A DNA stretch of 38,561 bases from Patellaria atrata CBS 101060 (GCA_010093705.1 MU006125.1:19050-57610); one strand, 5' to 3'. Numbered from the stretch's first letter, positions 2,843 through 37,262 are shown. Notes: generated by a model not told the origin, from the letters alone. Translations and numbers: made by a program.

Positions 2843-2957
2843 TGAGATAAACTGAATCTGCAGGTGCACGGAGTATATCGCTTGATTGTTCTCCATATGG
2901 AGGTAACACCTCGTTATATACTAGAGTAGAAACAATCTGTTGAGTCGTTGAGAATAC
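2843..2957 (+). repeat. Left arm of outer inverted-repeat pair, including the 81-bp shared core (2877-2957)
   Basis: 2843-2887 is the reverse complement of 31188-31208 plus 31403-31426 (3 mismatches). 2877-2957 matches 6143-6223 and the reverse complement of 27978-28058. Confidence 0.9.
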
Positions 2958-3375
2958 AAAACAGAGGTACACCAAAAGATAGGCTTTTGGTGAGTTCTGA
3001 CAAAACTGACAGTTTACAGGGAACCTATACATTAACACCTCACCATCTAATAGGTATAGCTGGTAAGCGTGCTTTGAAGCAAAGAGCGTGGCCGATCTAT
3101 TTAGAAAAGAGTAGGTAACCCCATTGCCTTATCAAGTGCTTTGCCCACTTAATGAGACTTGATATACGACAAATCCTTACAAAGCCGATGGAGCCTCGAA
3201 AAAGGCATGGATGGATTGTAGCACAGGATATAAAAGCTGGACATGTAATAAGGTAGGTCTAATCGTAAGATGTAATTCTAGAAACTGGGCATCAGGAAAT
3301 CGGCCTCTGCACCTCTACGTGGTGATGCCTAGGAACCTGAAGGTGCAGTTATAACGTTCTAGTCAATCTAGATCG

Positions 3376-4168
3376 TGTTATAGACCCTTCAGAGCCAACG
3401 CAGAGACGTCTCTACGGCTGCGCAGCGCTTGCGTTGTGTCGTGGTTGTGATGGTGAAAACTCTGCACCAAGGGGTGGAGAACTTCACCAGCTCGTGGGTG
3501 AGCACGACGACAAATAGACACTACAACTACGGCTCGTACGAGGAAGAACATCAGTATCACGAATCTCCATACCATACCAAACAAGCGATAGCCTTACTCC
3601 TCTCTACACTTTACCGCAGCAACGACGCTCCTCCATCGCCGCACCTGCGCCTCGCCAGCGCCTACTCGAGCTCGTTGCACACACGGATTTTAATTCAAAA
3701 CAAATACACGGCTTACAAACAATTCCCGTACACCTACGCCCTGCACGCGTGCTGCCTACTTAGCACGGCTTCGCACGAAATACCCGTACACCTGCGTCTT
3801 ACATGCATGTTGCCTGCTTAGCAAGGCCTCGTACACGCGATATACCTCTAATACCTCTGCTGGCGGGTAGACTGGTCCCCCACTCGCTGGCTTGTCCACA
3901 GCTGCGCTCCACAGCATACGTACCCGGAGTAGGATACCGGGTTATCAAGGGGATAGGACGTCCTTAGAAAGAGCTTGGAGAAGTATACGTATGCACGAGA
4001 TACCCCTACAGTCATTCGACACGCAGACACGACGCAGGCGAGACGGAAACAAGTGCTACGCCCCTACAGCTATTCGGCACGCAGGCACGGAGCAGGCGAG
4101 ACGGACGGAACACGTACACAAGTAAGGGGAGAGGAGGAAGGTGAGGGCCATACACAAGGATGATAACA
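3376..4168. mobile_element. Possible long solo LTR / LTR relic
   Basis: GC-richer block bounded by TGTTAT...ATAACA, with internal imperfect direct repeats (~3724-3835 and ~4020-4110). No matching TSD (GATCG vs CACGG). Confidence 0.4.
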
Positions 4169-4276
4169 CACGGATTCAACTAGATACTCCGTTCCGGAGT
4201 GCTGCAGAGCGACTCTCAATTGGAACAAACGATCAAGGGTAATAGCGAGAGGGGGGGGGGGGGGGGGCTGTATTTA

Positions 4277-4845
4277 TGTTACTATGGGAGTCTATACTTA
4301 TCTGGACAGAACCTGACAAGCCTAGAAACGCACAAGGATTCTCACTTAACGTGACCTTCCTCCTATACGAGTATAGGGTGGGTTTGGCAAAGTGATAGGA
4401 AGCAGTACAACGCTTGTACTTCAAGTTGACGATACAACTTGCGGACTCCTTAACTCAATCACGGGTGCTCACGAAGGAGGCAAGGTATACTGTATGGAAA
4501 CAGAGTGACAAGTATGAGTTAAGTTGTAAACTGTAACATCCAAATCTTATGGGTAAGATTCAATTGTAAGAATAACTACGAAGAATCTAAATACATGAGG
4601 GAAAGACCGTCCTTAAATATTCCTATCCTTCACAGTTCAATTTGGTGGTGCTCATACTGCTCAGTGTTCATAACCCTTGAGCACCCTGATCACTGATCTC
4701 GTTGCTCATACTGCTCAGTGTTCACAACCCTTGAGCACCCTGATCACTGATCTCGTCACGTGACCTCCGTGTTAGTTGTTCCGTTCCGGCACTTCATGCT
4801 GCCGTTTTACTGGTGATGCCTTTTCCTTGTCTTGTGGCTGTAACA
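4277..4845 (-). mobile_element. LTR relic related to 34258-34530; left boundary uncertain
   Basis: Minus strand starts TGTTACAGCCACA and shares ATCAGTGATCAG and AGGAATAtTTAAGGACG..ATTTAGATtCTTCGTAGTT with the 34258 copy. Ends are TGTTAC/GTAACA; TSD not preserved. Confidence 0.6.
4649..4756 (+). repeat. 54-bp tandem duplication inside LTR relic
   Basis: TGCTCATACTGCTCAGTGTTCA(T/C)AACCCTTGAGCACCCTGATCACTGATCTCGT twice, one mismatch. Confidence 0.95.
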
Positions 4846-5025
4846 ATAGACCCTAAAAAAGGGACCGCATCAGACATTAAACAAGAATCAATCAATCAAT
4901 TAATTCTAGAAACTTCTTCTACTTCTATTCTTAAAGGATGTTATAAAGGATCTCTTAATAATAGGGATTCGAATGTCTATGCGATTAAAGAACATGTATG
5001 ATGGAAAGATAAGAGACTAGGATAG

Positions 5026-5189
5026 TGTTATGAAACGAGCATAGAGCTGTGGTAAAAGTGGGTTGAATTCCTCTAGTTCTAGCTACGAGTAGACGAGAAG
5101 ACATGCGTGAGCCAAGCCTCTCGGACCGACCCTTACCGTGAGACTAGCGGTGCCTAGTCACCGACCGGTTAGTATACCGTTCCGTAACA
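5026..5189 (-). mobile_element. 164-bp solo LTR, copy 1
   Basis: TGTTA...TAACA termini with perfect 5-bp TSD GATAG (5021-5025 / 5190-5194). Near-identical inverted copy at 5889-6052. Strand is relative to copy 2 only. Confidence 0.9.
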
Positions 5190-5888
5190 GATAGGTAGAT
5201 AGCCCACGTCGCATAGAACTAACCGCTTCGTGCAGCCGCTAGGTTTATGCAAAAAGCGAATTCAGTAGATATACTTTTCAAAATTTGATTACTAGATGAA
5301 AGCTTTAGATATTTAGATAATTCATGCTTTTGATACCTTAGAAATAGGGTGGTGGATGTAAGCGCGCGCTGATACCAGCTGAGCGCGCTACTTTAGGCTT
5401 GAAGAATCAGGGTTTCTAAACGCCTTGTCCACTTCACCTCTTATCCAAAATTTGAAATAGTCGACTGTGTTTTACACTATAACCGCTATTCGTCTCAACT
5501 TAGCTTATTCTAAAAAATCTACGCCTTTGTTCCGAAAGCTAGGCGCTAAGCAGTGCTTTAACGTATATCATCCGCGCACAATCATCACTAGAACTACCCA
5601 GAGCATTAGAGGAAGTACTCTACATAGCTGGGGACATCTTCGAGCATAGGTAACACCTATAGTACTGTGCAAGGGACCTTGGTAGTTCAATCCTTAAGCT
5701 AGGCTCAATTCACGTAATTCATCTTCAGCTCGTAGCACTGTTCTTTATAGCGTTATCGTCCAGCCCACCGTCGCTATTAACATTATCAAACAGTCACTCT
5801 GGTTATCACGAATGCTTTTGCTGAGGAAGATATTGTATAAGTAATGTTCGCTACTTTTTCTAACTATGTAAGCCTTAGCTCAACCTAC

Positions 5889-6052
5889 TGTTACGGAACG
5901 GTATACTAACCGGTCGGTGACTAGGCACCGCTAGTCTCACGGTAAGGGTCGGCCCGAGAGGCTTGGCTCACGCATGTCTTCTCGTCTACTCGTAGCTAGA
6001 ACTAGAGGAATTCAACTCACTTTTACCACAGCTCTATACTCGTTTCATAACA
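5889..6052 (+). mobile_element. 164-bp solo LTR, copy 2 (opposite orientation)
   Basis: TGTTA...TAACA termini; TSD CCTAC/CCTAT (one transition). Confidence 0.88.
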
Positions 6053-6111
6053 CCTATCTTTTATATCGTACAGCTCTAGAACTATAACCCGAAGAGCATA
6101 TAACGTACTCA

Positions 6112-6269
6112 TTAGACGTAGGAGTGCTGATAAATAGAGATAATCGCTCGATTATTCTACATATGGAGGTAACACCTCGTTATATACTAGAGTAGAAACA
6201 ATCTGTTAAGTCGTTAAGAATACGTTCCGTGGTAATTCCATATACTCCGTCTCCACCCTCATTCAACAG
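6112..6269 (+). repeat. Left arm of inner ~158-bp inverted repeat
   Basis: Reverse complement of 27932-28088 with about 10 differences, five of them RIP-type (CA>TA, TG>TA) in this copy. Confidence 0.95.
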
Positions 6270-6367: not shown

Positions 6368-8233
6368 CTAGGCGATTCCAATCTTCTCTTTATAGCGTGC
6401 CCATGCGGATATGAAATCTGCGCGCTGCTGATCGTTCATTGAGTTGACGTCCTCCACGCCAAATAGGTCACAGTACAACTGTTTAAAGTCCGCCATTTCG
6501 AGTTCCTGCCCTTTACCTCCGGTTGGAAGTGTACTTTTCACCGAGCGCTTGGGTACAACTGCCAAACTTGGGTTGGTTGACAGCTCACGTTGCCCGCGAG
6601 TGGTTTCGACTTGGAGTCCAACGGACGGGGAACGGTCCTTTGCTGCGCGTTTACCCGTCCTCACCTCATCAAATCTTTCTTCTGCTTCACAGGCCGCTGC
6701 GTAGATTGCCTTATCAGCTTCATGCGCACCCCACCTTTGTCGCAATGTGGCTCGTGTTTCCCACTTCTTCACCGACTCAGTGTCCTTTTCCCAGTGAATG
6801 AGAATGTACGTGGATGGATACCTTGCCCCTTTCTCTTTGACGACTTTCGGATTGATCAAGGCAAGTTCAGCATCCGCATTCGAACCGGCACCTGGCTTCG
6901 CCAGCCATGCAACGCCATAGATAGCCCGAATATGACGTTTCGTGTACTTGTACTTACCGCTTGCTAATCTCTGCTCTCCCTTCCGATTAGCAGGGTTGCT
7001 AACCTTCTGGTCATCTGGAGGATCATCGTCGTAGTTGGACTCACACCAGCTCTCAAGTCGATATTTCGGAGCGTTAGGCTGACCGTATTTGTTAATGAAC
7101 TTCGTCCCTCTCCCGGAGGACCAGCCGACGGTAGTGACGGGAATCGATGGGTCATTTTGCGGCCCAGGTCTATGAATGAGTGGCCTACCCAACTCCGGGT
7201 CTAGGGGAAGGTGCTTATCCTCTTCTTGACCTTGCGGATTCTCCTCGTCTTCCCGTTTGATTGATATGGGGACGTACACTGGCTGTTTCTGGGGGCTCCC
7301 GGTTCTTTCGGTGCGGTCTCTCCAAGGATTCGAAATTTCGGCCTCTGCAACGCCGTGATATTGCGTTTCATTGCCTTGGCTCACTAGGCCTTGTGGGCGC
7401 TCTCTGGCTCCCTATTATTAACTTATTAGTACATTATCATGCTGTTGCGTTTCGTTGTCTTTGCTCACCAGGGCTTCTGGGCTCTCTAAAGATTTGATTT
7501 TCTTCGCGATAGCTTCCAGCTCCTCCTTAGCATCTTTCTTCTTTTTGGTTAATTGTGCCTTCTCTTCCTTTGAAAGGATATTTCCCGCATCATTGAGGTC
7601 CTCGAGACATTTCGCTAGAATGACTCGCTGCTCTTTATCCTTGGCCTTCAAATCCCTTAACTCTTGTGTCATCTGATCCGTCCCGTTCTCATTCTCATTC
7701 TCATTCTCATTCTTATTCTCATTCTCATTCTCATTCTCATTCTCATTCTCATTCTCATTCTCATTCTCATTCTCATCCTCATTCTCATTCTCATCCTCGT
7801 CTTCAATGCGGTCATAATCTGACGTATACATTTCCTCGTATTCTGATAGATCTTCTTCTACAGCTGCATCTTCCGCCTCAAGTGCCGAGATCGAGCCCTT
7901 AAGTGAATCGATGGCTTCATTCTTTTGCTTAATCTGTTCCCTTAATTTCTTTTCCTCCCGTTTATGGGCTACCGGGTCTTCCGGGTGCGATTCCAGCTCC
8001 CAATCATCGAAATCATTCTGTAGGCGTTTAAGTTCCTCTATAAGCTTCTCTACTTCCTTCCTTTTCTGCTCTATCGTCTGCCGTCGGGATTTGCGGGCTT
8101 GCAGCGCCCTCCTTATTTTCGGGTCCAGCACCTTTTTGCCTTTATTGCGTAGATTTCTTTCCTTATCAATGATTGATCTCGTATTTTTCGTGCCCTTAGT
8201 TTTAGATGAAGATGACTTGGCTTTCTTTCCCAT
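6368..8233 (-). CDS. ~602-aa protein: basic N-terminus, coiled coils, (EN)n tract, C-terminal chromo-like domain; exons 8233-7469 and 7411-6368
   Basis: A 57-bp phase-0 intron (GTGAGC..ACTAAT..TAG, 7468-7412) joins ORFs 7418-8233 and 6368-7384 in frame (EAL|GARERPQGLVSQ). Confidence 0.8.
7686..7795. repeat. (TTCTCA)n coding microsatellite giving an EN dipeptide run
   Basis: Direct hexamer run read in the sequence. Confidence 0.95.
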
Positions 8234-8680
8234 TGTGATTAATATGACTGATAAATGGAAATCTTAATGAACAAACTATAGTAGAAAGGATGTTGAAGAA
8301 TGGGTGAGGATTATTGAATAGAAATCTCAAGTCCAGCTTGAGAGTTATTACTACTAAGTATAATGAGTTTAAGACTCTACTTGGGTGGTTTTATAGCTGT
8401 GGAAAACAATAATCATGGCTTTTAGCGCCGGAAGGAAATTCAGAATGTGATTACTAGATATTGCAACTCACCGTCTGAGATTCGGGCTATTGTAGATAAG
8501 TTCACAGTTTCCACTTCTGTTTTCCATGGTTTCTTCCCCTAATTTACGCAAGCGCTTTTAATAGATTTACCTTAGCCGCGCGGAAAGTTGAAAACCTAAC
8601 GCAACGGCTTTAGAACTTAATAATCACTTAGATAATATGGAGATGGCCGACTAATTTACTTTCGATCCGTATACTTCACA

Positions 8681-9392
8681 ATATTTTTATCTCTCTTCTT
8701 AATTCTTTATACGGCTCCACGCGCTATAGCATCATCATCCCGATACGGCTAAGATGTATCCTGGAATGAGACTATCCCCCGCGATCATGATACAGGATAT
8801 ACGGCATATAATAATACCGTGCAGCTTACTTTCGGGACCGCTAGCCGGCTTCAATTTGACCTATAAACATTACACGTCTTGCCGGGTACCACTCTGACCT
8901 TCAATTTCCTCGGTCTAAATCATACTTTAATACAAAGTTCATTCCAGCACCTATACAACCATACCGGCCCTATCGACACTGGCTTTAATCAATTCAATTC
9001 CCACAATGTTTCTAGAAGGTCCTTTATAAATGTCTTAGTCAATTCAACCCGACCGCTGTGGTTCTACTGCGCTCAAACTTTAAAGATAAACCACTGTAAG
9101 CAGGGAATGGTCTTCAGCGTTAACCTAGGTTTAGAAGATGTTGATTAAGCTTTCCGGCTAAATATAATACTGAGTGCACAGCTCTACGACTGCTATCTCC
9201 CACTCATGGCCGAACTCTACTACTGTCATGACTTAGTTGCTACTTAACTCAACAACTGTTATTTCTCAATTTTCGAGAACTATCCAGAACACCTGCGTAG
9301 GAGTAACGGCTCCTAGAACCCAATCTACTATAGCTCTCTCGACGCTTACTCACTACCACACGCCTTGCCAAACCACGAACGTCCGGCCGAGC
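8681..9392 (+). pseudogene. RIP-inactivated tandem copy of the cupredoxin-like gene
   Basis: Colinear with 9838-10580. ATG>ATA at 8681; stops at 8750, 8864 and 9146 (the last CAA>TAA); CCA TGC>CTA TAC removes a Cys. Confidence 0.9.
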
Positions 9393-9394
9393 TT

Positions 9395-9550
9395 GAGTCC
9401 GGCTTAAGGGTTGAGGAAGGTGAATTTAATAGTTAAATAGAAGTCTTAAGTCCGGCTTAAGAGTTAAGACAGGTGAATTTGGTAGTTAAGTAAAAGTCAA
9501 GTCCGGTTTAAGAGTTGTTACTCCTGAGCAAGGCGAATTTAATAGTCTAC
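9395..9550 (+). repeat. Three imperfect ~52-bp tandem units at the duplication junction
   Basis: AGTCCGG(C/T)TTAAG(A/G)GTT...AGG(T/C)GAATTT..TAGT three times; the third unit resembles 8329-8380. Confidence 0.8.
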
Positions 9551-9807
9551 CCCGCTGGTTTTTATAATAGCGAAAAAAAGGGAGGTGACGTTTTAGCTTT
9601 AAAATAGAATTTAGAACCTACTTAATAGTTACTCACTTCAACGATTATTATTTAGACGCTTTATAAATGAGCTTTTTATGGTTTCTAATTCTACTTCTCC
9701 CTTTCCCTTCTACGCGAGCGCTTAAAATAGTTCTACGTTAACCGCGCGAAGCTAAGAGTCTAAAATAATAGTTCTAGAACCTCTAAATTACTTAAATATA
9801 TGGCGGA

Positions 9808-10719
9808 ATGAATTACATTTCGTCCGTATGCTTCACGATGTTCTTAACTCTCTCCTTAATTCTCTGTACGCTGACGCTACGTACTATAGCATTGTCTTCT
9901 CCATATAACAGCGATGTATCTTGGAATGAGACCACTCCGCGTGTCTATGATATAGGGTATACGGCACATAATAGTACAGTGCAGGTCACTGTCGGAGTTG
10001 CTGGCCAGCTTCAATTCGATCCACATACTTTAACCGTCCCACCGGGTACTACATTAACCTTCAATTTCCTCAGCCTAAACCATACCTTAACACAGAGTTC
10101 ATTCGAGCATCCATGCAATAAAACAGGTTCTATCGACACTGGCTTCAATCAGTTTAATCCCCAAAATATCTCGGGAAGATTCCTTGTGGATATCATAGTC
10201 AATTCGACCCGCCCGCTATGGTTCTACTGCGCCCAAACCCTGAAAGCAGACCACTGTAGTCAAGGGATGGTCTTCAGCGTTAACCCTGGATCAGAAGCTA
10301 TTGATCAAGCCTTTCGTTCGAATGCAGTACTAGACATGCATACAACTAATGGGCAGGGAGAGCATTGCCCTACGACTATCGTCTCTCACTCATGGCCGAA
10401 CTCTACCACCATCATAAGCCAATCGGTGCTCAGATCAACGACTGTTATTTCTCAACCATCGAGACCTGTCCAAAACTCTTGTGAAGGGGCTACAACTCCT
10501 CGAATGCAACATTCTGGGCCTCTATCCATCTTCACTCACTCTCGGGCCCCCGCTCCGACCACGAGCGTCCGGCTAAGCTCGAATTCTAGTTCTTCGCCAA
10601 TAGACAATTCTCAGCCAAGCTTGAATAGTACCTCACCTACTTTAGATAATTTTGCATACCGTACAAGCTTGGAATGGAAATTGTTTCTGCCTTTGCTGCT
10701 CTTGAGCGTATTTGCGTAG
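9808..10719 (+). CDS. Secreted, probably GPI-anchored cupredoxin-like Ser/Thr-rich protein (start may be 9838)
   Basis: Hydrophobic signal-like N-terminus. NHTLTQSSF and PLWFYCAQ..HC..GMVF give the H/C/H/M type-1 copper ligand pattern. S/T-rich stalk and hydrophobic C-terminal tail. Confidence 0.88.
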   Translation: MNYISSVCFTMFLTLSLILCTLTLRTIALSSPYNSDVSWNETTPRVYDIGYTAHNSTVQVTVGVAGQLQFDPHTLTVPPGTTLTFNFLSLNHTLTQSSFEHPCNKTGSIDTGFNQFNPQNISGRFLVDIIVNSTRPLWFYCAQTLKADHCSQGMVFSVNPGSEAIDQAFRSNAVLDMHTTNGQGEHCPTTIVSHSWPNSTTIISQSVLRSTTVISQPSRPVQNSCEGATTPRMQHSGPLSIFTHSRAPAPTTSVRLSSNSSSSPIDNSQPSLNSTSPTLDNFAYRTSLEWKLFLPLLLLSVFA

Positions 10720-15302: not shown

Positions 15303-15653
15303 GGGTCTTCTAGAGTCGCAGGACTAAAATCTCCTATTAGCGAAAAGCCCCTATGGTCTTAATTTTAGTGAAAAAGCTTGGGTGAGCGGCAATTAAACGA
15401 ATAACCGCGTTTAGGCCGTAAGGTCTTTACGATTCGCTGGGAATTTCAACCCCGTGGCGGATCTGCCCCTACGGACATTTTTGTCAAAAACGCAGATCCG
15501 CCACAGGGTTGAAATTCCCAGCGAATCGTAAAGACCTTACGGCCTAAACGCGGTTATTCGTTTAATTGCCGCTCACCCAAGCTTTTTCACTAAAATTGTG
15601 CCCGTGGGGGCTTTTTGCTAATGCGAGATTTTGGCCCTGTGACGCCAAAGGAC
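15303..15653. repeat. Long foldback palindrome: 106-bp arms 15361-15466 / 15492-15597, 25-bp spacer, degenerate outer extensions
   Basis: Inner arms are reverse complements with 1 mismatch; the outer ~55 bp on each side still pair imperfectly. Confidence 0.95.
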
Positions 15654-15930
15654 CGAACGGTATCAACTTCCAACAGTTTCAAGCAGTCCTTGCAGAAATT
15701 CAAGTATCTCGAGGGGGGCTCCGCCCCGTGCATCACTGCGTTCGTCAACCCCCGCCGACTCAAGTCTATCCTAGGGAACGTCCCGTAACATCTTCAGAAT
15801 CAAGTATATTGTTGGAATTAAGGGTCACGCAAGGTGACTAGATATCTGAAACGGCCGAAGGCCATGCAATTGAGATAGCTGAATAGCCACCCATATGATA
15901 ATTGACAATCAATGAACACTTTACACCCTC

Positions 15931-17562: not shown

Positions 17563-19540
17563 CTAACGCCTTGTTTTCGAGATTCCTTGCGGTTTCCCAG
17601 AGTACGCTGAGTTTGTGTGTACCGTGGTACGTCGTGTTGATTTTTGTCTGGCCGTTGAGCTCGACTGAGCAGGTTGGACATCTTGATCGGATCCTCGTGA
17701 ACGTAGTTTCTTTATACGATTCGGTATGCACGCACTTCGGCGTAGAGGACCAACCAAGCTAGGGGGTGGAGACGTTGGGTAGCATGTTCGTTGAGATATC
17801 CGTTTGCTCCTGCGTAAGGCCACCTTAGGTGGCTCCTGTACTTCTACATGCGCTATATTATCGGTACGACCCTCAGGCGGCCCCATTCCATAGCAAGTGG
17901 TGCTGAGCTTTTGATTTAGTGGACGTTTTCTCCTCTGGCCAGACTTAAATACTTTCGAAGGTTGGACCTGACTAAGTGGTGACCGTTCCCTGGCGGATTT
18001 TCTTTTGGGCCGAGTGCTCTTCCCCGCCACACTCGATAGAGAAGCATTGCGCACGGGCCCACTTGGTGATGGCTTCGAATATGGTAGGACGGCCCGGTCC
18101 TGGTCCTGGTGATTGCCGTTGAACTGGCTGTCCTGACTGAATGGCGTATACTTCGCAGCGATTTCCGGGAACTCCCGCTCGACCCACGCTAGTAGAGCTT
18201 TCAGCGGCCTTACACGGTCCTGCGGACATAGCAAGTCATTCATCACCTCTTCGGTCTTGGTCTTCTCCCGTTCTATTTCTAGGAAACAAGTCTCCTCTTG
18301 CTCATTTACGCGTTTAAGCCTCTCGCGCATGTATACGTAGTACTTCTCCCATCCGTCTAGTAGATCGCGGTTGTGTTTGCTCCCCCAACTAGATGATGCA
18401 TATTCCGTAGCTACTTCCGTAGACTGTCCCGCGATCCACTCTAGCAGAGTATCCAGCCGTTCCAGACGTGTGTTGGCATAATTCACACTTACCTGACAAC
18501 TCCCTAGGTTTGATCGCGCGACGTCTCTTTGGGCTTCCTTACGTAATTGCTCTATTTCATCCGACTTCTCTGCTTCCAATCTCTTCTGTGCCGATTTGAG
18601 ATCTTCCTCCGCCTGCTCTGTTAATATGTTCCTTTCGGTAGTAGATAGTAACTCCTCCACCCCTAATACTTCCAGTCTCTTCTGCGCTATTTCTACTTCC
18701 TTTTGTGCCTGCGATATTTTCTCTCTATACCTAACCATTTCTGCAGCCCGCTTCCATAATACGGCTTCGGGAATCCCTACTGACCCATTCTGCTTAGCTT
18801 TCATCATCCGCTCCTCTGCTGTTTCTAGCTCTCTTTTCGCTCGGCTAAGCTCCTTCTCTAGAGTATCGCGTTTCCGATACTCATAGATATAGTATTCCCT
18901 CCATTCGTCTAACTTCGTCTGCCGGTTTAGCTGTAGCTCTACGACCCAATCGGTTCCCTTCTCCTGTTGGTACCTATGGACAGCCTCCTTGTATTTATTG
19001 AATATCTTCGAATCCTCCCGCTTTTTGAACTGGTGCCACCGGAAGTCCAGCCATAGGGTGAGTTCATCCCGAGTCCGCCATAGTTCCCCATTCCAATGAT
19101 CTGGAGCATGATATCTTTTGTCTATATCAGATTTCCAAGGAGGGCAGGGACCGGGATCGGGGTTTATCTCGCGAGGAGGCCTACCGCCCACGTTCTTTAA
19201 ATCCTTATAGTTCTCGTAGGCACTATATCGTGTATGCTCAATCAGCTCTTCCTCCGTCAATTCGGCTCCAGCAGTTACAGGAGTACTAGGAGCATCGCTC
19301 GGGGTTGGGGAACGTCTTGGGGAGATTTGCCTGTATTGGATTGAGTAGTTAGCGCTGTATAAGCTTGGTATCGAGCGTGCACCTCACTCACCGTAACTTC
19401 GTGCTAAGTTCATCTGCGTTCACAGCGCGGGATTCAGATGGTTTATCCCTTTCACGTATAAGGGATCTTCGTACAAGAACGCTTAGCAGGAATTCTTGGT
19501 ATATTGAACTAGGACTTACGTGAGCCGTTCCAACCGCTCA
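17563..19540 (-). CDS. Coiled-coil hypothetical protein (>565 aa) with basic disordered tail; small 5' exons, start unresolved
   Basis: Long ORF 17563-19260 with GGRP, ELxxWxxFRxxQ and QTKLDEWREY motifs. Upstream in-frame exons lie between GTAAGT..GCTAAG..AG and GTGAGT..GCTAAC..CAG introns. Confidence 0.8.
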
Positions 19541-20148
19541 TGCGTTAGGTTATGCTTGTCGATGACGTCGATATATCTTAAAAGACAATGCTGCGTTAAC
19601 CCAAGAGCTCTATGCTGAAGCGGTTTATATGAGTTTAAGGGCACTCTATACTTACATGTGGGTTCTATCGCCTGCTCGCTGATCCCATTTCTGAATGTCC
19701 TGGACAGTCAGAGTGTCCAGCTCCTTGGCTAGAATTAGCGGCATATTGAGGTTGATGAGTGGGTGGGGGGTTTAAATGTGCTGAGCAGTTGGGAAAGGTG
19801 TGAAGTGGATGATGGAGGTGGGAAGGCTAAGTAAGCTTGAGGTTTTCGTTTGCGGAAATAGCTTAGTCATATAGTTTGGAGTCCTATTTCTCCGAGCCAT
19901 GGCCTGCATCTGGACGCTCGGGCTTTTCCCCAGTCGTTTCTTCGTTGCCAATCGTTCGCATCACAGCGCGTACTCCTAACATGCTGTGCATGCCAACAGG
20001 GGGCTACTCTAATAGCCAACACCTTATATCATGGCACTTGACCCTCTGCCCTGGTTTAAATGTAATTCTGCGTGTCTTTTATTCTCTTCAGAAGCTGCAA
20101 CGCCAAAGAAGTTCCCCACTCAAAGCTTCCTGACTGTATTCTATCAAA

Positions 20149-23100
20149 ATGAAAGAAGATCCGAACGTCATTTTCATACTAAGGGCAATCAGCCCTTACG
20201 CCCAGAGATGGTTCCAGCACTCGCACAACAAGACATATTACGTACCTCCACCTCATGTCGAGATAGTAGCTGCTGCCAGCCGAGAGTCAACGCCGGCGAC
20301 GAATGTAGGAGATGAAGAGGAGGATGCCGATGGGCTGGGTGACGTTTATGAAGATTTTAGTCCCCAACTCCGCTTCATATTCGACCAAAAGCCGAAGAAT
20401 ATCCAGGCCGGATATGTGTTCGGCAGTAACCCGAAAACCTGCGATGTCTTAATAGGGCGTTCTATAGATGGCATAAGCAGTTCGCATTTCAGGATCACGT
20501 TTGACAGTCAAGCCCAGCTTGTGTTGATAGACTCGTCCATGTTGGGAACGGCAGTCAGCTACGGTGGCCGCGCAAGGAACGACAAACGGAACAATCCACC
20601 GGACCGGAAACGGAACAGACCACGGGACAAATCCCTAGACTTCACGTGGATCCTGTTCCCTGAAATCAAGAACAAAACCGTCGTAATCGGAGGTGCTAAA
20701 CGCCCTAGCAGCTCCAACGTCCCCGTCATCGAGTTCTCGGTGGAGGTTGCGGAGCCCGAGACTGGGTCCTGCAAGGAACAATACACGAATCTGAAGAATG
20801 CATTTCTGGACGAGATGGGAAGGGCGATCCCGTTCGGTCTCGACATCGATAGTTCCCTAACCACCGCAGGCCAGACGGAATCACACTCTCCAACACAGCG
20901 TCCGATACAGCGTCTGAAACAGCGTCCGATCTGGATTGATCTTGAGGAAATCGGAAGGGGCGAATATGGGATTGTCTACCGGGCTATTAATGTGAGTACC
21001 GCTACAATATATGCTGCTAAAATGTTCCTACGGTCGGGAAAAGAGATTCGGGAAAAGTGGGATAGGGAAGTTGCGATTTTGCAGAGTGTTTCGCATGTAA
21101 GGATTATCTCGCTTTAGTAGACGACAATTAACTTGTTTTAGGACCACATCGTAAAGTTTGTAGATCACGATACTGAACATAAATGGCCTCGCCTTATAAT
21201 GGAATACCTGCCCCTTGGAAGCCTAGCGAATCAGCATAGAATCACGGAATATGAGACTATTACACTGCTCTATCAGGGACTTAGCGCTCTTAATTATCTA
21301 CACACTGAAGAGATCGTACATCGCGATCTCAAACCGGAGAATATCCTGGTTCAGTGTCGGGATACCGCCAATTTCTCAATCAAAATTGCTGATTTCGGAA
21401 TGGCTAAGGATGGCTCGTTCCTAAAAACGGTCTGCGGCACACGACTCTACGCTGCCCCGGAAATTTGGAAGGGGTCTCCTTACACCTCTAAGGTAGATAT
21501 ATGGTCGCTGGGTGTTATCGCGTTTAAGTACGCACGTGGCCTCCCGAACGTCCCGAAGGTAAATGGCCAATTCGATGCTGAATCCTGGTATCAGGCACTT
21601 GCTCGGGCGATTTCTAATCGGGGCTCACATAAGTTAGTAGACTTTCTCTCGTCCAGCATGCTGAAGGAGGATCCTCTCGAAAGGCTCTCAGCGAGCGAGT
21701 GTCTGGAAGAATTAGCCAATCTCCGCGAGGTAATTATACCAGCGCAGAATTTTGAAACTGACTACGGAACGCCTACGGAAAAAATGTCCTCGTCATGCAT
21801 CATGGATGCTCTCCGGGCTGCCGGATATGGAGGGGGTCAGGAGACGTCTGTTGAGGAGGCAGAAACACAGATTCACCTCTCCGCACTTAGTATACCCAAG
21901 TCTGACCGGCGACTTGGCAACTATTTTGATACAGCAAAGGAATACGAACGAAGTCGACAGGATGGAGGAGGTCAGGAGTTGGCTACTGAAGAGGCGAGAA
22001 CATGGTCCGCCTTCCCCACGCTTAGCACGCTTAAGTCTGTCCGTCAACCGGGCGAGTTTCTGGAAAGGCTGCCACAGATATGGGATCCTCCCGGCGAAAC
22101 TACGTGCAGGCCGGAAGAAGACGAAGGAAGTCGGCAGGAAGTTGGTATCGGCACAGGCAATGGTTCCGACAGAAAGCATCCGAAACGTCAACGTACCGAG
22201 GGATCCAGCGTTATCACATCCCAACTGACACACCAAACTTCCGGGGAGGTCCTCCTGGCAGCTTTCTCCGACCGTGGGTCCTCAGTCAATACTGATACCT
22301 CGTCTAAGATTACTGAGTGGGAGGGGTCATCGTATTTACGACCATTCAGACTGTCAGAAGTCTTGGAGAGACATTCAATCCAGCATCATGAAGACGACCA
22401 GTCCGCGCCGTCACCGAAGGCGGCAGACAAGAACCAACCATCAGGGTCCTTCCAAAAAGCCACCGTAGAATCTACGGCCCATTTACAGGACGTCCAAAAG
22501 GATTTGGATTTGTCTACGGTTCCGCATGGTCTCATCCGGGACACGGGTACGTTAACGGACGCTGGTGCCCAAGCAAACAGACATTATATGCAAGACACTT
22601 ATAATCGTAGCAAGGAGCAGTTCGAAGAGGTGAAGCAACGCTACACACTCGTAGGAATGAGTAGTCCTCCCTTCGCTGCGGATAAACTGCAATCGAATCT
22701 CCCAGATGAGGTTGGACATGGCAACGGTCCTACTGAACAAACTCAACAACCTACAGAAAAGAGATTTCTGGTGGTTTCGACTATCTATGGCGCTATTCAC
22801 TTACTTGTAGAGGGCTCAAATCTGCTAGTAAATGCCACTAATATTGCAAAGATATTTGGATATAACAGAATTTTATCCTTTAAGGGCAGGCCAAGGCCAA
22901 TTCTAAGCCTTACCAGAGAATTGGACACGCGACTGCAAGGGAGTTACTATACTGTTGAATCCGCGCTTAAATTCTGTGATCTCTTGCCTGCACAATCAGA
23001 TGCACAAGCAACGCATGCGATTGGTCAGGTGCTTAAGGAAACGTTACAGAGATGTATAGAGAATCATCGATCTGGACAAGACAAACTACTTATAAAACCT

Positions 23101-23281
23101 TTATACCGCAACAAAATTCGGCAAAGGTGCGGAAGATGTGCTCGACTGCATATCATTTGCAATCGTGAGATTCCCTGCCAGAATTGCACACAGGCTAGTA
23201 AAGGTGAGCACGATTGATTTAGGTACTAGAGAGTGCGTTCTGACGATTCGACTAGACTGTGTATACGGCGCCCGCCAGTGA
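20149..23281 (+). CDS. FHA - Ser/Thr kinase - KilA-N/APSES-like - Zn2Cys6 protein, ~1011 aa; exons 20149-21096, 21142-23203, 23256-23281
   Basis: FHA-like GYVFGS..CDV..GISSSHF..LIDSSMLGT. Kinase GRGEYG, AAK, HRDLKPEN, DFG, APE. VNATNIAK..LQGSY segment. C-x2-C-x6-C-x5-C-x2-C-x6-C completed across a 52-bp intron. Confidence 0.9.
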
Positions 23282-24004: not shown

Positions 24005-25891
24005 CTCTTACCTACACATTCACACATTGTAAATGTGTTGTCATTGAAGATAAGAAGAACAGAACGGGTATCTAATCTTCCTCTAGGCTATCTGCGGAGA
24101 GTGTGCTCTTCCCGAAGACAGTATAGAACATCAAGATCCAATAATGCTTGTTTGTCCTTGTCTAGAACATTCGAAACACGGAGTCCAGCATTTGGCACGA
24201 TGTTACCAAGCTGTTTATCCAATTTGTACCGACGATGATGCGCAGATACGGCTTCCCTGTGGTGAGTATTTCATGAGACATCATATTTAACTGGAATTTA
24301 GGTATGCTTTAGGTCATTGCTTCTGCGAGGACTGTATTCAGAGACTGGTCCACGCACAGAGTAACGGGACATCTGCGATGTTTCAGTCTGGGTATCCTGA
24401 GCTATGTTCTAAGATGATCCGACATCGTTCGCTATAAATAATGCACATCTCCCATTAACCGAACGAATACTCCTTTCTAATACTGTTAGGAATATCGTCA
24501 GGTTTGTCCCCGCTGAACCGTGATGTTTGCCTTATCATTAACCTTAATGATTCTCGCAAGCCATGAGGTAGTTTCTCTTTTCATAAAGAGATATTTGCCC
24601 TCCTGGTACTGACGTTCTTGATTGCCAGAACGACACCGAATATGCGTATTCAAGGTGTTAAGGTATCTTAAGCAAGACTTCAACTCCCACCAATAACTAT
24701 TATATTCCCAATTGAAAATGAAACAGGTGCTACTATAGCAACGACTGGTCATCATTCACGGATTAACGAGCATTATATTGAAGGCTGACCTACTCAAATT
24801 GCCTTTAGTTGGCGGTGGCTAGGAACGCACGGAATAAGTAGACTATGTATGAGCCATGGAATAGAAATTTTTTATGCATCTTCTTACACCACGCATAGGA
24901 TGATCCGTTTTGGTTACCTCAAATTTAGTGCTCGTTTATTTAACTTCCTACAAAACCTGCTTTAGAATTAACAGTCGTCTACTTTGTTGTTCTAGATCGC
25001 ACTATAGAACGATTTGCCTGTAAATAGATTTTTGACAATCTGCATTTCTTCATTCCTATCTAATTAGAGACAAAAATTGAAGATTCCTTTTGAGGGCGGC
25101 AAGTTTCACTGTTTCCCGAGGTTCTATGTGACAAGTTTACTATCTGTGACGCCAACCATGGATGGTAATCGTCGTTTGTGGCCTTGACGCTACATGTATC
25201 TCGGAGCCGGACCCTCGGCTGAATCGGAAAGGGAGTGTGATGCCCGAGGGAGACGAGGAGAGAGGATAATATGGCAACACAGCGCAACGAAACTTATGCC
25301 GGGAAAATTTCCTTTTCTTTTTTTTGGGGTGGGGGGTGGGGGGATGGGGTATCTAGCTCCCTCACTCATCCTAAACGCATTCCCCGGGGTAGAAAAGTCG
25401 TAAGGGATATACCTGAGTGAGATGGAGATGGTAGTTATTGGCGGGCCATGGAACTCACGCCGAACCAGACCCGATATCTTGTGAAGATGGTCGGACACGG
25501 TTTCTATTATCATACGCATTTTGTGTGAGGAGCTAGAGGGTAGCTTGATAGCGACGGTGGTATACATGTATCCTACAGTTCTATGATTATTGATGAGAAA
25601 GGAGATAACTTGTAGGTAGTGATGAAGGGAGGGGAGGGGAGAAAATACGAGAGCGAGAGCGAGAGCGAGAACAACAGTAGATGTTCCACTAATTTCATAC
25701 CTTATGAAAGATCTTGAGAGAGAAGAGAAAAGTAAACGAAACATTATTCCTAGCCATTACAAACCCATCGAAAAGGCCAGTTCAATGTCAAAGCCCTCAT
25801 GTAACATCGAATATGGCCTTCCAGACGCTGTGTTATTCATACAAATTATAGCTGCGTAATAAACCCGTAAATCATTCCCTACCTCGCCAAA

Positions 25892-26757
25892 TTATAATTC
25901 CCTAACTGCAGTTTCTAAAGTCCATAATTTCTGATCCTTCTCCTTATTCTGTATTCTCAATCTCTTGATCTCGGCCCTAAGATCCGAGGGATCAGTCTCC
26001 TGTCCGCTACTTTCACCTGTTAATCTCCGTCTCTTCTGACCTGTCTTTTCGCCTTCACTGATCTCCTCATCCACCTGTGCGGGATTCGTAATAAGGGCAC
26101 CTGGAACTTCACCCTCAGCCTTGGCTCTATCAGACGATCCTGAGACATTTCGGTGCATACGTCGGATATGCTCGTGCAGATTTTCCTTGCGGGCAAATTC
26201 TTGACTATAAGAGCGCTTGCACTCTTTATAAGGACAGAAGAGCGATTGCTTTATACCGCTGTAGAGTTTGTGCACCTCGCGGAGGTGGCGAGTCAATCCA
26301 CCATTATAAGTGAAGCCCCTCATATATTTACAGCTTGGGTATTTACATTTGTAAGGCCGGTCATGTTTATCCATATGTCGACTGGGGCAAATAATTAGTG
26401 AGAGTCCTAAATAGGTGAGAATGATATGGAAAAGGGAAAAAAGTAAACATAATAGGAAGATGAGATGAGAAGTAACGAACGTGTAAATTTAGATACTTAT
26501 ACATGATAATAGAGATTAAATTAAGGGATAGAGGAGGTGTATACTCACCTCCAGTCGCATTTGCGATTGAATGTCAAATGACTGCACTTTACGCTTCGCG
26601 TACATATCATTTTGTTCTCTGTATTCCGTTCGGGAGATTCTCTTCGTTTATATAAATGCCCACGTCTAGAAGAAGAGCACATGCCGCGACCTTGATCTTC
26701 AGGAGAAGTAACATCCTCCGAAGAGTCTTGTGCCGGATATTGTACTCCTTCCAACAT
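25892..26757 (-). CDS. Three-finger C2H2 zinc-finger protein with C-terminal coiled coil; exons 26757-26549 and 26381-25892
   Basis: Intron GTGAGT..CAG (26548-26382) completes finger 1 (CTRSVKC..CDWS-RHMDKH); fingers 2 and 3 are CKYPSC..HLREVH and CPYKEC..HIRRMH. Confidence 0.88.
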
Positions 26758-27931
26758 TTTCCTCGACGGGGGACTCTTTAATCACGAATAACTGTTCGAA
26801 CTCACTAGAATTAGAGGAAGTTGGCTAGATTATATAGTCAAGTGATAGCCCCTTATGTTAAGGCTCTCATTAGAAACACCTCTTAGTTTGGGATGCGTCA
26901 TAGGTATACGTATTTGGATAAAGGTGAGCGTGGTAAACTAGAGGCGCAGCATCAGGCACCGGAGGAACGAGGTTGACACTTAAAGGAGAGTTAGTGAGGC
27001 TGGCTTGCCTCTATTATAGCAATTCCAGCGATAGGTTACGGCCGGGTGAGGTGTCGCTTTCACAGGCATTAATATTTACCTCAGGCGAAGGTGAAAAGGC
27101 TGAGGCTCGTCCCTGTAATTGAATGGAATCCTACTTAATGAGTTTGTCAAAGAGCGCTTTCACCCAGACACACCAAGGCTACAATCGTCCTCTTACATTA
27201 CTCATAGGAGGATCCATTTGATTGCCTCAAATATAGTGCACGTTTATCTAACTTTCTACAAAACCTTCTTTAGAGTTATCACATATCAACAGCATCATTC
27301 GTCTGCTTCGGTGCCTTAGATAGCTCATAACTAATCATAGGTACTCCGAAAAGTTTAGGTTAATGTCCTTTTAAGCTTGCTATTGGTTCACAATCTAGTG
27401 CTTTAGGTGCCACCTAACCAGTTATTTTCTAGTTACTTCCGGTGAAATATTTGGGGGAATTCTGTTACCTATCTGATAAGTTAGGTCCAAGGATCTCCTG
27501 TTATTTGAATAGGTTCTGTTGGCTTAGCCACTCAAATAACAACGGTATAACCTCCAATAACACCGCAAACCGTAAGCTGAGACGTCGGGGAAATCGGGAG
27601 ACAGCATAGGCTGTCTCAACACTTTCTTTCCTTAAGTTTAAGCTTCATGTACATATAGCAATATACCTTTCAGCTTCCATCTGAGGTTGAGCCATGACAG
27701 GGGACAAGGCTCACGTTCCACAACCAGAGAAATGGGACTGCAAATCAACTCCATACTTTCACTTCGAGCAGATTTTATTCTATAAATAACAGATCTTCCT
27801 TAGCTTTAAATCATTATCTATGATAACATGCTATATGGCCCTAATACTTACAACGGTGAGGGCTTTCGCCTAAAGAACTTACTTAAACCATCTTCAGCTT
27901 TGAAAAGTTCTTAAAGGGGGCGCAATTTCAG

Positions 27932-28088
27932 CTGTTGAATGAGGGTGGAGACGGAGTATATGGCATTACCACGGGACGTATTCTCAACGACTCAACAGAT
28001 TGTTTCTACTCTAGTATATAACGAGGTGTTACCTCCATATGTAGAACAATCAAGCGATTATCCAATTCATCAGCACTCCTACGTCTGA
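27932..28088 (-). repeat. Right arm of inner inverted repeat
   Basis: Reverse complement of 6112-6269; contains the core at 27978-28058. Confidence 0.95.
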
Positions 28089-28162
28089 CATCAGCAATAC
28101 TACGCCAACTTAGTTTCCCCAACAGCATTTTCTTCCAGTAGACGAGCAGTCCACAAGACTTC

Positions 28163-28760
28163 TCACTCTCCCTTGGCTACCTTCTCAAAATCTTCTCGCT
28201 GCTGCTGGAATCGCTTGGGTTCTCCCTTGTGAAGATCGGCCTTCTCAGCGACTGTAAGGAGAGATGAGTGAAGGAGCCTGAAACGTTCTGCATCCCATCC
28301 AAAGTTCCTGATGGCAGGCGGCAACAATGTCGCCAGCTGAAATATCATCTCTTCCTGTACGTGAGAGAGAGTGTGTTAGCCGATGCTTGAAGTATTATAA
28401 TCATCCACAAAAACCTACTGGAGGAGGGGGTAATTCTCCACTCGTATGATAAAGATCTAACACCTCTCTGATATCATCCTCCACCATCTGGTAAGACGAC
28501 TTCGTGTGCCGGGCGATATTTATCCGGATCCAACGATGATGGAAGGCGAGAAGCTTATTCTCTAATTCATCCTTCACTTGCGGTGGAATTTTCTCAAGAT
28601 GGGTCAACGCTATATCCGCTAACCGCGAGAGTTGGTCTTGTGTTATATCAGAGTTACAAAAGCTAGCACACCATTCGTCTGTTGCAAATTCGTAAAGCTG
28701 GCACAGCGCTCCGAAGTATTCATCACAAGTTTGCGGCGTGGAGGAGAGTTTCGGTGGCAT
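28163..28760 (-). CDS. Hypothetical helical protein, ~177 aa; exons 28760-28419 and 28354-28163
   Basis: A 64-bp phase-0 intron (GTAGGT..GCTAAC..CAG) joins two ORFs in frame (PPP|EEMIFQ). Confidence 0.75.
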
Positions 28761-28813
28761 TGAACGATGCCCTCGAACAATATACCAGTCCCTTATTATA
28801 TGTCAGAATAACA

Positions 28814-29143
28814 TTAGGTACTATGAATCAGATAGGAGTACCTTTCCATGATCCATACAAATAAATAATCCATACTCCCGTTCCGCAGACTCGATGCTAT
28901 ATTTACGCTTTCGCAAACAAGTTCATCTATGGTTTGGAAATCTTCACCTTCCGATAGAAAATGCTGGTACAGGAGGATCATATTCAGCAAAATAGAGAAT
29001 GGACCTTCCGCAGGGTCTCCCCGGGTTTCATAGAGATTGTCATCGCCAATATTGCGTCTCCTGAACCATTCAATGGTGCTTGAAGGAAGAGTTTGAACTA
29101 GATTAGTTGTTGAGGAAAGAAACTTCGAAGGAATATCAAACAT
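28814..29143 (-). CDS. Hypothetical protein, 109 aa
   Basis: ATG-started ORF ending 54 bp before the next gene; may be spliced. Confidence 0.45.
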   Translation of the reverse strand: MFDIPSKFLSSTTNLVQTLPSSTIEWFRRRNIGDDNLYETRGDPAEGPFSILLNMILLYQHFLSEGEDFQTIDELVCESVNIASSLRNGSMDYLFVWIMERYSYLIHST

Positions 29144-29978
29144 TATGATAAAACCCTCTAGAAGATGAATGATGAAAGTAATGATAGCTAAGGCGGTAGC
29201 TTAGGAGTTCTAACTATCAGTAGGTAGAAGGAAGAGAAAAGTTTATGGAGCAAATAGGTTATTACAACTTCTTGATTTAAAATAAATCCTGTCTTACAGC
29301 ATGAACCTTCAGTCCCTGTCCTAGTTAGTCAGTCAAAGCTTTCCAACCGCTGATACCGCGTTCAATAATTTATGCTTGTGGGTTCTCGTTCTACGCTACG
29401 TCCTTCTTCTGGAGTAATCCTTTAGGGGGGACTGCATTAAACTATAGTTGATGATACTGGAGATCTCACTCACTTCATTAGTTTATGCCGTTCAATAGAT
29501 CTCCGCAAATACCGCCTTGTCGCGGAACTCGGTTTCACGCTATTCTTACACCTGATCCTAGATTATGGTTCTAAGTGGCGTAAAGGGGCTGTCCCCTCCC
29601 CTTCCAAATTTGCCGTGTGGTTCTGTATATTCTATTATCTCTTAGATTAGAATATGTGACAATATTTTCTTATCCTCCGGATCAGGCCGTCTCTGCATGA
29701 GTTAGTTCGCCATATACGAATGTCGCCCACACCGCTATGAAGCTCAAGACTAGATCTAAGACCTAAGAGCCTCGAGAAGGGGCTCAAAACTTATCAAAAC
29801 TGCTGCAAGATGAGAATAAAGAATTAGGTCGTCGGCTTTGCAGTATTGTACAAGAAGCCCTAAACTCATTTGATTCGATCATATGCTACCCCAAGAGGGC
29901 GCGGTAACTTGTCCTTATCCTGAACTGCTTGCTTTCAACGTAACTTGATTCAATATGGCGGGTCAAGCCCCAGTAAAT

Positions 29979-30514
29979 CTAGTTGCTCGACTCTCCTACT
30001 TGATCCGGAATCAACGACGAATCGCGAACAGGATCGTAGAACCTCCGTCCCGATTCTTGTGACGTGGGGGTTAATTCTAATGTAACTTGTGTGGATCCGT
30101 TAGAGTTAATGTTTATTCACACATGTTCTAGGATACTCACCCGCTTCACGGATTGCTTCTCTAGTGCTCTGAAGTACTTTTGGCATGCACCAACCCGCAA
30201 TATCGGTATTCCAGCATGTTAAACCTTTACTACTTAAGATTTCGCTTACATGGTCGACAAAGTTTATCTTAACTGCTGGGGGGATCGTTTTCCACAATAC
30301 TTGGTTTTCGAAGGAGATCCCTATATCCGCCCAAAACTTATTATCTCCAAATACGAGTGCGTCCCCCTCGTCTCTAGTAATTTTCTTATACTAAATACTT
30401 GATTTATGGAGAGCTATGGGTCATACTTACTAGAAATTGTTTCCACTGATTGTTATCATACCCCAAAGCCGCTTGGACCTGTCCCTTTGTAGACAGCACC
30501 GTTATATCCATCAT
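29979..30514 (-). CDS. Small three-exon hypothetical protein with FYDPVRD near the C-terminus
   Basis: MMDITVLSTKGQVQAALGYDNNQWKQFL | GTAAGT intron | YKKITRDEG..REA | GTGAGT intron | ELTPTSQESGRRFYDPVRD..stop; all in frame. Confidence 0.65.
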
Positions 30515-31187
30515 ATCAGTTGTCGCACTTTTGAAGCTGGGTCATCGGAACTAGGGCCGCATAGACCTACGCACTGACACATGACGTTTTAGCGTCAGAT
30601 GTAGAGACACATCGAACTTTAGCGTGCACAGACAGCAAGTCCCGTCGGATCCAGGGCAGCCCTAACCTCCCGTTACTCGCCGTGCACTGACAGAGAACTT
30701 TTTAGCGTGCACAGACACATCCTACCTAACCCTAGGAACTCCACCTCAGGGCAGTGACGCAAAATCTTTCAGCTTGCATAGATAGAGAGCCTCGTCCAAC
30801 TTTTCTACTCGTATTGTTCTTGGATGTCTCACAGGACTACTCTCCGTCAATGGCTGATGATGATTTCATCCATGAATCCCTAAAGTTAATCGAACCATTT
30901 CTACCCTAGAACTAGTAACCTCTAGGTATCTTTCTTATATAAAGAAGTATACTAGGTATTAGATGGTGGAGCTGACGTATTGGTCATACTGGCGACTAGA
31001 GCTAACGAGCGACTCGCTTATTTGGTATCAGCGTAATTAGGGTTACTAATCTGATACAGTACTATCTTTCAGTTTTTACTGTTGGTATCTTTTTTTGCTG
31101 TATTCTAAGTCATAGACTTTATACTGTTCCGTCCGTTTTGGTACACACCTGCAGTATATAACAGCTAGATAGAACCACTCTTTTGAG

Positions 31188-31426
31188 AATCAAGCGATAT
31201 ACTCCGTGTGTCACGATCTGGATCTATGATCGCAACAGCGGCTCGGGCCACCACGGGTTAGCTAGTCGGCCCGAGCTTTAGCATATGGATATATCTCTCC
31301 CCTGATTGTAAATAGCTTTCTCTCCTCAACTTGTTGTTCTTAGTCAATGGAGTACTGCTTTAACCCATGCTACGTATCAAAGATACTCGCTGTGACATCG
31401 TGCACTTGCAGATCCAGCTTATCTCA
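31188..31426 (-). repeat. Right arm of outer inverted repeat, interrupted by a solo LTR and lacking most of the core
   Basis: AATCAAGCGATATACTCCGTG plus CACTTGCAGATCCAGCTTATCTCA reconstitute the reverse complement of 2843-2887. Confidence 0.85.
31209..31397. mobile_element. 189-bp solo LTR
   Basis: TGTCAC...GTGACA termini; TSD CCGTG/TCGTG; the empty site is visible at 2843-2887. Confidence 0.88.
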
Positions 31427-37246: not shown

Positions 37247-37262
37247 AGTCTAAAAAGCGTCT

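Follow-up and report, generated by a model that had tools for sequence, protein, structure and literature searches.

Two nested inverted-repeat pairs with mosaic arms bracket a gene-bearing interval in Patellaria atrata

In a 38,561-nt stretch of DNA from the Dothideomycete Patellaria atrata CBS 101060 (the window; all coordinates are window positions), two pairs of inverted repeats lie one inside the other and form a real, well-delimited nested structure with mosaic ends, with no evidence that either unit ever moved. This structure is tentatively read, with a confidence a little short of even, as a 22-kb non-autonomous terminal inverted repeat (TIR) element of the cut-and-paste type, nested in one of ~6.4 kb, both belonging to one loosely related family and located in a repeat-rich accessory region. 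The analysis covers this one locus of one genome, and additionally draws on protein databases and the literature. The window comprises all but 19 kb of a repeat-rich scaffold of 57.6 kb, and three proteins annotated in this strain agree with open reading frames of the window at 99–100% identity. Decaying wood and bark are described as the substrate of saprobic Patellaria species (PMC11767155), and, among the titles listed for the literature on Patellaria atrata, none concerns its transposons.

Two inverted-repeat pairs share sharp edges

The arms of the inner pair align over 158 columns with seven transitions, two transversions and one gap (94.2% identity over 156 positions by BLAST), and delimit a unit of 21,977 bp (6112–28088). 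Within the window, the 24-nt tip of these arms is confined to the inner pair. The outer pair is represented by an exact inverted match (21/21) between 2867–2887 and 31188–31208, while the terminal 24 nt of the left arm (2843–2866) are matched further out, on the minus strand at 31403–31426 (21/24), a second match that was seen in none of 100 dinucleotide shuffles of the window. The two portions of the right outer arm are separated by a 189-bp insert (31209–31397) with termini TGTCAC...GTGACA, flanked by CCGTG (31204–31208) and TCGTG (31398–31402), which agree exactly over the four bases CGTG. Both the TG...CA ends and the target duplication of 4–6 bp that characterise a solo long terminal repeat (LTR) are present, and the insert bears the signature of a solo-LTR-like sequence with a 5-bp target duplication, CCGTG/TCGTG. 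Excision of the insert together with one target copy places the outer arm in exact register, with 42 of 45 positions identical and all three differences being transitions; the preliminary description of this DNA had noted that a 45-bp reverse complement of 2843–2887 results from this deletion, and this is confirmed.

The members of each pair stop at the same base, at their outer and inner edges alike, and the four arms follow one another in the order + + − −, with like paired with like and the outer pair bracketing the inner one. The coordinates of the arms, and of the features between them, are compiled in Table 1.

The four arms are built from common modules

As had also been noted, the left outer arm runs on into an 81-bp core that it shares with the inner pair. 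The core on the outer arm (2877–2957) agrees at 80 of 81 positions with that of the inner right arm (27978–28058) and at 76 of 81 with that of the inner left arm (6143–6223), where the additional changes are mostly C-to-T or G-to-A. Every arm has a copy of its first 11 nt (ATCGCTTGATT), that at 6143 differing at a single position. A further 11-nt motif, ACGGAGTATAT, is present as one exact copy in each of the four arms and nowhere else in the window; in the case that one mismatch is allowed, five matches are found against 0.76 expected, a number attained by none of 100 shuffles. In the outer arms the motif is direct and begins 26 nt inside the tip, and in the inner arms it is inverted and placed ~128 nt from the tip, at the inner end. 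When extended to 14 nt, it matches at 13 of 14 positions, a score attained by none of 3000 genomic controls. A search of the 38.5-kb window with an arm profile returned these four copies and no more. Judged from their sequence, the four arms are mosaics in which common modules are joined to differing tips.

Folding of the arms and the core as DNA revealed no unusual structure (z-scores of 0.33, −0.48 and −0.56). Rfam and tRNA scans of the window gave no match, so that the core does not correspond to any known RNA gene. In metagenome data, neither a 25-mer taken from the core nor a 22-mer taken from the outer arm was matched.

Two other ways of grouping the arms were rejected. An interleaved arrangement, in which 2877–2957 and 27978–28058 would be the paired ends of an element, fails since the sequence outside the core differs. 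Each arm on its own was considered as a complete miniature inverted-repeat transposable element (MITE). However, comparison of an arm tip with the reverse complement of its own inner segment gave scores that were reached by 724 and 1605 of 3000 genomic controls, and no repeat was seen by inspection around any single arm. The arms are thus unlike complete small MITEs, since they are not self-palindromic and have no flank duplication of their own.

The mosaic nature of the arms bears on an alternative that we consider unlikely, while giving it serious attention, namely that they are leftovers of a dispersed repeat family in intergenic DNA, the genes between them being resident and the symmetry arising from chance, local gene conversion and perhaps inversion. 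The core is found on three arms only, and that at 2877–2957 is closer to a distant arm (80/81) than the inner arms are to each other, which argues for sequence exchange over simple inheritance. Furthermore, each inner arm sits 75–100 bp past the stop codon of a gene on the minus strand (at 6368 and 28163, respectively), where small elements typically land, the interior genes (kinase, zinc fingers, secreted protein) look ordinary, and neither a target duplication of at least 4 bp nor a transposase is present. However, the outer and the inner edges coincide precisely within each pair, and a 158-bp unit without inverted ends or a flank duplication of its own corresponds to no recognisable small element. 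Additionally, the like-with-like order + + − − would be expected in about 1 of 48 cases for four copies of two types, by simple counting applied post hoc.

The spacers between the pairs are unrelated

A single decayed inverted duplication of 3.4 kb was rejected as the source of the outer intervals. The best alignment between the spacers 2958–6111 and 28089–31184 scored 23.7 bits, whereas 24 control segments gave values of up to 28.4 bits, and the open reading frames (ORFs) of the right spacer had no match in the left spacer at the protein level. The spacers are thus unrelated at both the DNA and the protein level, and therefore do not derive from one such duplication.

The same comparison bears on host rearrangement, in which the arms would be scars of an inverted segmental duplication or inversion breakpoints, possibly produced by alternative transposition with the ends of two neighbouring elements, and the pairs would not be the ends of transposing units. 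The spacer lengths are indeed alike, at 3,269 bp on the left and 3,144 bp on the right once the LTR insert is removed, and maize provides a documented case of alternative transposition in which two neighbouring elements each contribute termini (PMC4270019). However, the spacers lack similarity, the left one amounts to only ~2.2 kb when a nested foldback element is discounted, and the arm edges are sharp, with no graded decay. We regard this explanation as improbable.

A scaffold gap of 621 N (31551–32171), preceded by a poly-C run, begins 124 bp past the outer right tip, and the continuity of the right flank consequently rests on scaffolding. The gap also invites the suspicion that repeats were mis-joined during assembly. 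Nevertheless, all four arms lie in continuous sequence to the left of the gap, and neither collapse nor mis-joining would create arms that differ by 6–7% or an insert with its own target duplication, so that an assembly artefact appears very improbable.

A nested transposon as the favoured reading

In the favoured reading of a transposon nested within a transposon, we infer the following order of events. A ~6.4-kb non-autonomous TIR element (tips TGAGAT, 45-bp TIRs, 2843–31426) would have taken in a 22-kb relative (tips TCAGAC, 158-bp TIRs), which inserted with the foldback element on its left and, on its right, the orphan gene P0121 facing it with the 3' end, and carried its interior genes along as cargo. 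The transposase for both units would have been supplied in trans by an autonomous relative outside the view of this analysis, and the near-identity of the core at 2877–2957 with the inner right arm may have arisen when neighbouring ends exchanged sequence, by gene conversion or template switching. At a later stage, an LTR retroelement would have inserted into the right outer repeat and been reduced to a solo LTR. As this end is thereby interrupted, the outer unit should no longer be able to move. In support of this reading, the neighbourhood holds further TIR and foldback elements as well as the LTR relic. The patchy and partly multi-copy occurrence of two Pfam-less interior gene families also speaks for it, as does ToxhAT/ToxTA as a precedent from the same fungal class.

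A number of observations nonetheless weigh against it. No flank duplication of at least 4 bp was detected for either pair in a search that covered lengths of 2–11 bp and let the edges move by as much as 3 bp. The exact-edge flanks of the outer pair differ, with TA to the left of 2843 and CA to the right of 31426, and the CA/CA match of the inner pair (left of 6112 and right of 28088) would arise by chance in 1 of 16 cases. The 81-bp core is carried by three of the four arms and is missing from the right outer arm: beyond its 45 bp, the best local score of this arm against the core-bearing left arm was 20, a value also attained in 74 of 1000 shuffles and in 75 of 1812 genomic controls, and the core is without a partner there because such similarity is at chance level. 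The terminal 30–34 nt, the part that a transposase usually recognises, are not significantly alike between the two arm types; under two scoring schemes, their scores were reached by 1515 and 901 of 5000 shuffles, and by 726 and 336 of 5000 in the same comparison with genomic controls. Furthermore, none of 329 ORFs (every stop-to-stop ORF of at least 40 aa in 2700–31540; Pfam cut-offs of E ≤0.01 for 160 ORFs and E ≤0.001 for the other 169) matched a transposase, integrase, recombinase, reverse transcriptase or helicase family. Neither of the two largest unexplained proteins, both encoded in the inner unit, gives a nuclease-like model: that of 606 aa is modelled as an all-helical coiled coil, with a basic tail that is disordered and no RNase-H-like fold, and the model of that of 347 aa was assigned no fold in a Foldseek comparison with PDB structures (best E 0.19; CHD1 tandem chromodomains at E 0.5–1.3). 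There is also no sign that the units multiplied, because neither the kinase of the inner unit nor P0121 has a close paralog in P. atrata. Finally, the inner unit, at 22 kb, would exceed the 14 kb of the ToxhAT/ToxTA precedent considered below, and the reading rests on one locus in one genome.

The difference between the outer flanks could be a product of repeat-induced point mutation (RIP, C to T), as one possible explanation. The non-coding outer spacers are mildly RIP-like (TpA/ApT 1.18–1.36), which may simply reflect non-coding DNA. When the inner edges are shifted by 1 nt, the flanks read CAT/CAT, a match without significance given 49 combinations of offsets.

These results also bear on the preliminary description, which had envisaged an element of ~28.6 kb holding one of 22 kb. 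Its flanks (TA left of 2843, CA right of 31426 and CA right of 28088) were read correctly, and the nested geometry holds, with repeat pairs far beyond chance. The case for a mobile unit of ~28.6 kb is weaker, given an outer pair of 45 bp, a lone core, tips at chance level, the TA/CA mismatch, and the lack of both a target duplication of at least 4 bp and a transposase. The likeness that it had seen between the termini TGAGAT and TCAGAC is no better than chance and carries no weight.

Comparison with known transposons

The closest known analogue is ToxhAT/ToxTA of Dothideomycete wheat pathogens, described as a non-autonomous cargo transposon of 14 kb that has TIRs of 74 bp and a TA duplication of 2 bp, hosts nested transposons, lies in the Starship Sanctuary and has ends disrupted by RIP in some species (PMC12506042). 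As far as that account goes, the likeness extends to the fungal class, to long TIRs (74 bp in ToxTA, against 45 and 158 bp at the present locus) on gene-carrying DNA with no working transposase of its own, to a possible 2-bp flank repeat, to nested transposons and to end mutations able to disable the element. Unlike ToxTA, for which a TA duplication is proven and empty sites and copies at different loci are described, the present units show CA/CA and TA/CA flanks and are known from one copy; moreover, the inner unit measures 22 kb and not 14 kb, the element nested here is a relative from the same repeat family, and the mosaic ends share a core and not the tips. With respect to the Tc1/mariner type to which ToxTA conforms, TIRs are present at both ends, but the inner flanks (CA/CA) lack the expected TA duplication; the outer ones (TA/CA) are one transition away from it. 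The tip TCAG... may resemble mariner ends.

Mutator-like elements (MULEs) have target duplications of 9–11 bp and MURA-type transposases. For neither pair was a duplication of this kind found, or any of 4–11 bp, with one or two mismatches and 3-bp edge shifts allowed. MULEs in which multiple related long TIR arms (>100 bp) occur on one gene-carrying unit have been described (PMC3310237), and the present locus is like those described there in having more than two related arms and long arms of >100 bp, though the latter applies to the inner pair (158 bp), the outer arms measuring only 45 bp. It is unlike MULEs in that the arms are 3.2 kb apart, no duplication of at least 4 bp is present and no MULE domain occurs in the scanned ORFs.

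Nested TIR transposons as such are commonplace. In Pyrenophora, a hAT element nested within hAT-1_Ptr is reported, both being a few kb in size with domain-encoding ORFs and the nested one having a 6-bp duplication (bioRxiv 10.1101/2025.11.13.688278). That case, as reported, shares with the present one a TIR element lying within a TIR element in a Dothideomycete, and differs in that neither unit here contains a transposase and the inner one bears ~22 kb of genes. The described traits of hAT elements, an 8-bp target duplication and TIRs of 5–27 bp (PMC12506042), are not observed, as no 8-bp repeat is present and the arms are of 45 and 158 bp.

Starships, giant tyrosine-recombinase elements of Pezizomycotina, are described as having a DUF3435 captain at the 5' end that reads inward, with quoted elements of 76,706–195,340 bp, and NOD-like receptors (NLRs) are listed among their recurrent genes (PMC9156397). 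They are cargo-carrying mobile DNA of filamentous ascomycetes, sometimes with TIRs and short flank repeats, and the present locus would be like them in these respects and has an NLR gene adjoining it; unlike them, it has no captain in the window, and its units are smaller than the quoted sizes. It is conceivable, with a small probability, that the window lies inside a Starship-like giant element whose captain is outside it, the repeat pairs being relics of small transposons that ride along, a scenario compatible with the favoured reading. In favour of this, the outer left arm has a HET-NACHT-WD40 NLR gene as its direct neighbour, the scaffold is repeat-rich and no longer than 57.6 kb, the interior gene families are patchy and multi-copy, and ToxhAT itself sits in the Starship Sanctuary. 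However, no scanned ORF of the window matched DUF3435, DUF3723, ferric reductase or patatin; for the DUF3435 tyrosine recombinase, this covers all 329 ORFs in 2700–31540 and the flank ORFs scanned within the window.

Large fungal DNA transposons that carry host-type genes but no enzyme of their own are barely documented, ToxhAT/ToxTA, which moves a virulence gene, being the worked example. Should a carrier of this kind, with mosaic ends and a nested relative, also exist in a harmless wood saprobe, this would suggest that such carriers are more widespread and that gene blocks can be assembled through nesting. A bolder and rather improbable extension is that the locus represents an undescribed Dothideomycete family of large gene-carrying TIR transposons with modular ends (81-bp core, 14-nt motif and exchangeable tips), which would grow by mutual insertion and stepwise accretion of gene blocks and would perhaps be moved by a protein of the 606-aa or 347-aa family, both rich in relatives and one of them multi-copy in another fungus, in place of a classical transposase. 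The suggestion that the family nests or accretes gene modules stepwise had already been made, as an extrapolation from this single locus.

Gene content of the inner unit

Table 1. Repeat arms, insert and enclosed features of the nested structure (window positions)
Feature	Position	Strand	Remarks
Outer left arm	2843–2887	+	45 bp; tip TGAGAT; TA directly before; 42/45 to re-joined right arm
Motif ACGGAGTATAT	2868–2878 (+), 6240–6250 (−), 27951–27961 (+), 31197–31207 (−)		once per arm, exact
81-bp core on outer left arm	2877–2957	+	first 11 nt (ATCGCTTGATT) within the 45-bp arm; 80/81 and 76/81 matches
Left spacer of outer unit	2958–6111		non-coding; 54–58-bp tandem repeats, poly-G run; TpA/ApT 1.32; no Pfam match in ORFs
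Inner left arm	6112–6269	+	158 bp; tip TTAGAC; CA directly before
Inner unit interior	6270–27931		~21.7 kb; at least 8 genes; contents in the next six rows
Gene	6368–8263	−	
Tandem secreted-protein pair	8533–10719		
Orphans			
606-aa ORF	17563–19383	−	
FHA-kinase and Zn2Cys6 frame	20134–23217	+	
zf-C2H2	25892–26488	−	
Inner right arm	27932–28088	−	157 bp; minus-strand tip TCAGAC, then CA
Gene for 288-aa orphan P0121	28163–29200	−	three exons; right spacer of outer unit
Second small ORF of outer unit	30106–30520	−	no family
Outer right arm, inner 21 nt	31188–31208	−	exact reverse complement of 2867–2887
Solo-LTR-like insert and second target copy	31209–31402		insert 189 bp, 31209–31397; TCGTG at 31398–31402
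Outer right arm, terminal 24 nt	31403–31426	−	minus-strand tip TGAGAT; CA follows

In 2700–31540, the Pfam families above threshold were Pkinase and PK_Tyr_Ser-Thr (both at 20134–23217) and zf-C2H2_aberr (25892–26488), while FHA fell just under its cut-off (19.9 against 20.7 bits). Neither the 606-aa nor the 347-aa family has a Pfam domain, none being found in 14 homologs scanned, nor in P0122. The 606-aa ORF has 24 relatives at E ≤0.001, 13 of them at 56–70% identity and with Pleosporales-type fungi included, and at least five paralogs in Zopfia rhizophila; its best match among PDB sequences was at E 0.13. For the 347-aa ORF (6368–7411, minus strand), the neighbour of the inner left arm, 227 representatives were obtained at E ≤0.001, of which 33 are at E ≤1e-30. 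The model of this ORF is confident (mean predicted local distance difference test score of 80.6), VIA-align matched the C-terminal helical hairpin alone (Z ≤5.3), and weak chromodomain-like sequence matches were obtained for the family (E 0.024–0.45). Members of both families are often located on small contigs. Judging by the homologs, the patchy distribution and, for the 606-aa family, the multiple copies are typical of accessory or mobile DNA, and are no proof about the repeats.

The product of the gene at 6368–8263 is rich in lysine at its N-terminus and contains a coiled coil as well as an (EN)n run, which is encoded by a TCTCAT hexamer array (7657–7812); its C-terminal domain defines the family of 227 representatives. 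The 606-aa gene and the FHA-kinase gene are divergent neighbours, and their homologs P0139 and P0011 each come from an ENA contig of one and the same length (19,628 bp), which suggests that the two genes are also linked in a further organism. In the kinase region, 21142–23217 (plus strand) is a single open frame of 691 codons that comprises the end of the kinase P0008, which is marked partial, and the whole of the 523-aa P0001 with its C-terminal Zn2Cys6; the public gene models may split one kinase-Zn-cluster gene.

A tandem gene duplication (8533–9396 and 9701–10582) encodes a secreted-looking serine-rich protein, with a 307-aa ORF at 9796–10719. At 70% identity, the two copies are separated by 162 transitions and 65 transversions, and the first is broken into short ORFs and has the more RIP-like composition. 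The inner unit additionally contains a near-perfect hairpin at 15304–15654 (163-nt arms, 90% complementary, 25-nt spacer), and a direct 95-bp repeat (83%) occurs at 24879–24973 and 27188–27281.

The outer unit and its neighbourhood

Apart from the tandem repeats listed in Table 1, the left spacer contains a foldback-type element of ~1 kb (5021–6058) whose arms of ~180 bp are 96.7% identical and whose right end is 53 bp from the inner left arm. Its composition is the most RIP-like in the window, with a TpA/ApT of 1.58 and a composite index of 0.82, and a clear target duplication is lacking. In the right spacer, P0121 is predicted to be all-helical; a protein search returned its own record only, scores in the structure atlas stayed below 0.9 with a template modelling score of at most 0.53, and no Pfam family exceeded the threshold.

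The NLR gene next to the outer left arm occupies 1–2673 on the minus strand; at its upstream end, the open frame extends to 2673, ~170 bp from the outer left tip. An inverted 54-bp repeat (85%; 4571–4624 and 34413–34466) ties the left spacer to DNA beyond the outer unit. Further beyond the outer pair, a 2.9-kb unit (35120–38042) has terminal inverted repeats of ~162 bp (84%), no flank duplication and ORFs without a Pfam family; inside it are a second inverted pair, at 35308–35602 and 35728–36022 (76%), and a 9-bp tandem array at ~37249–37480.

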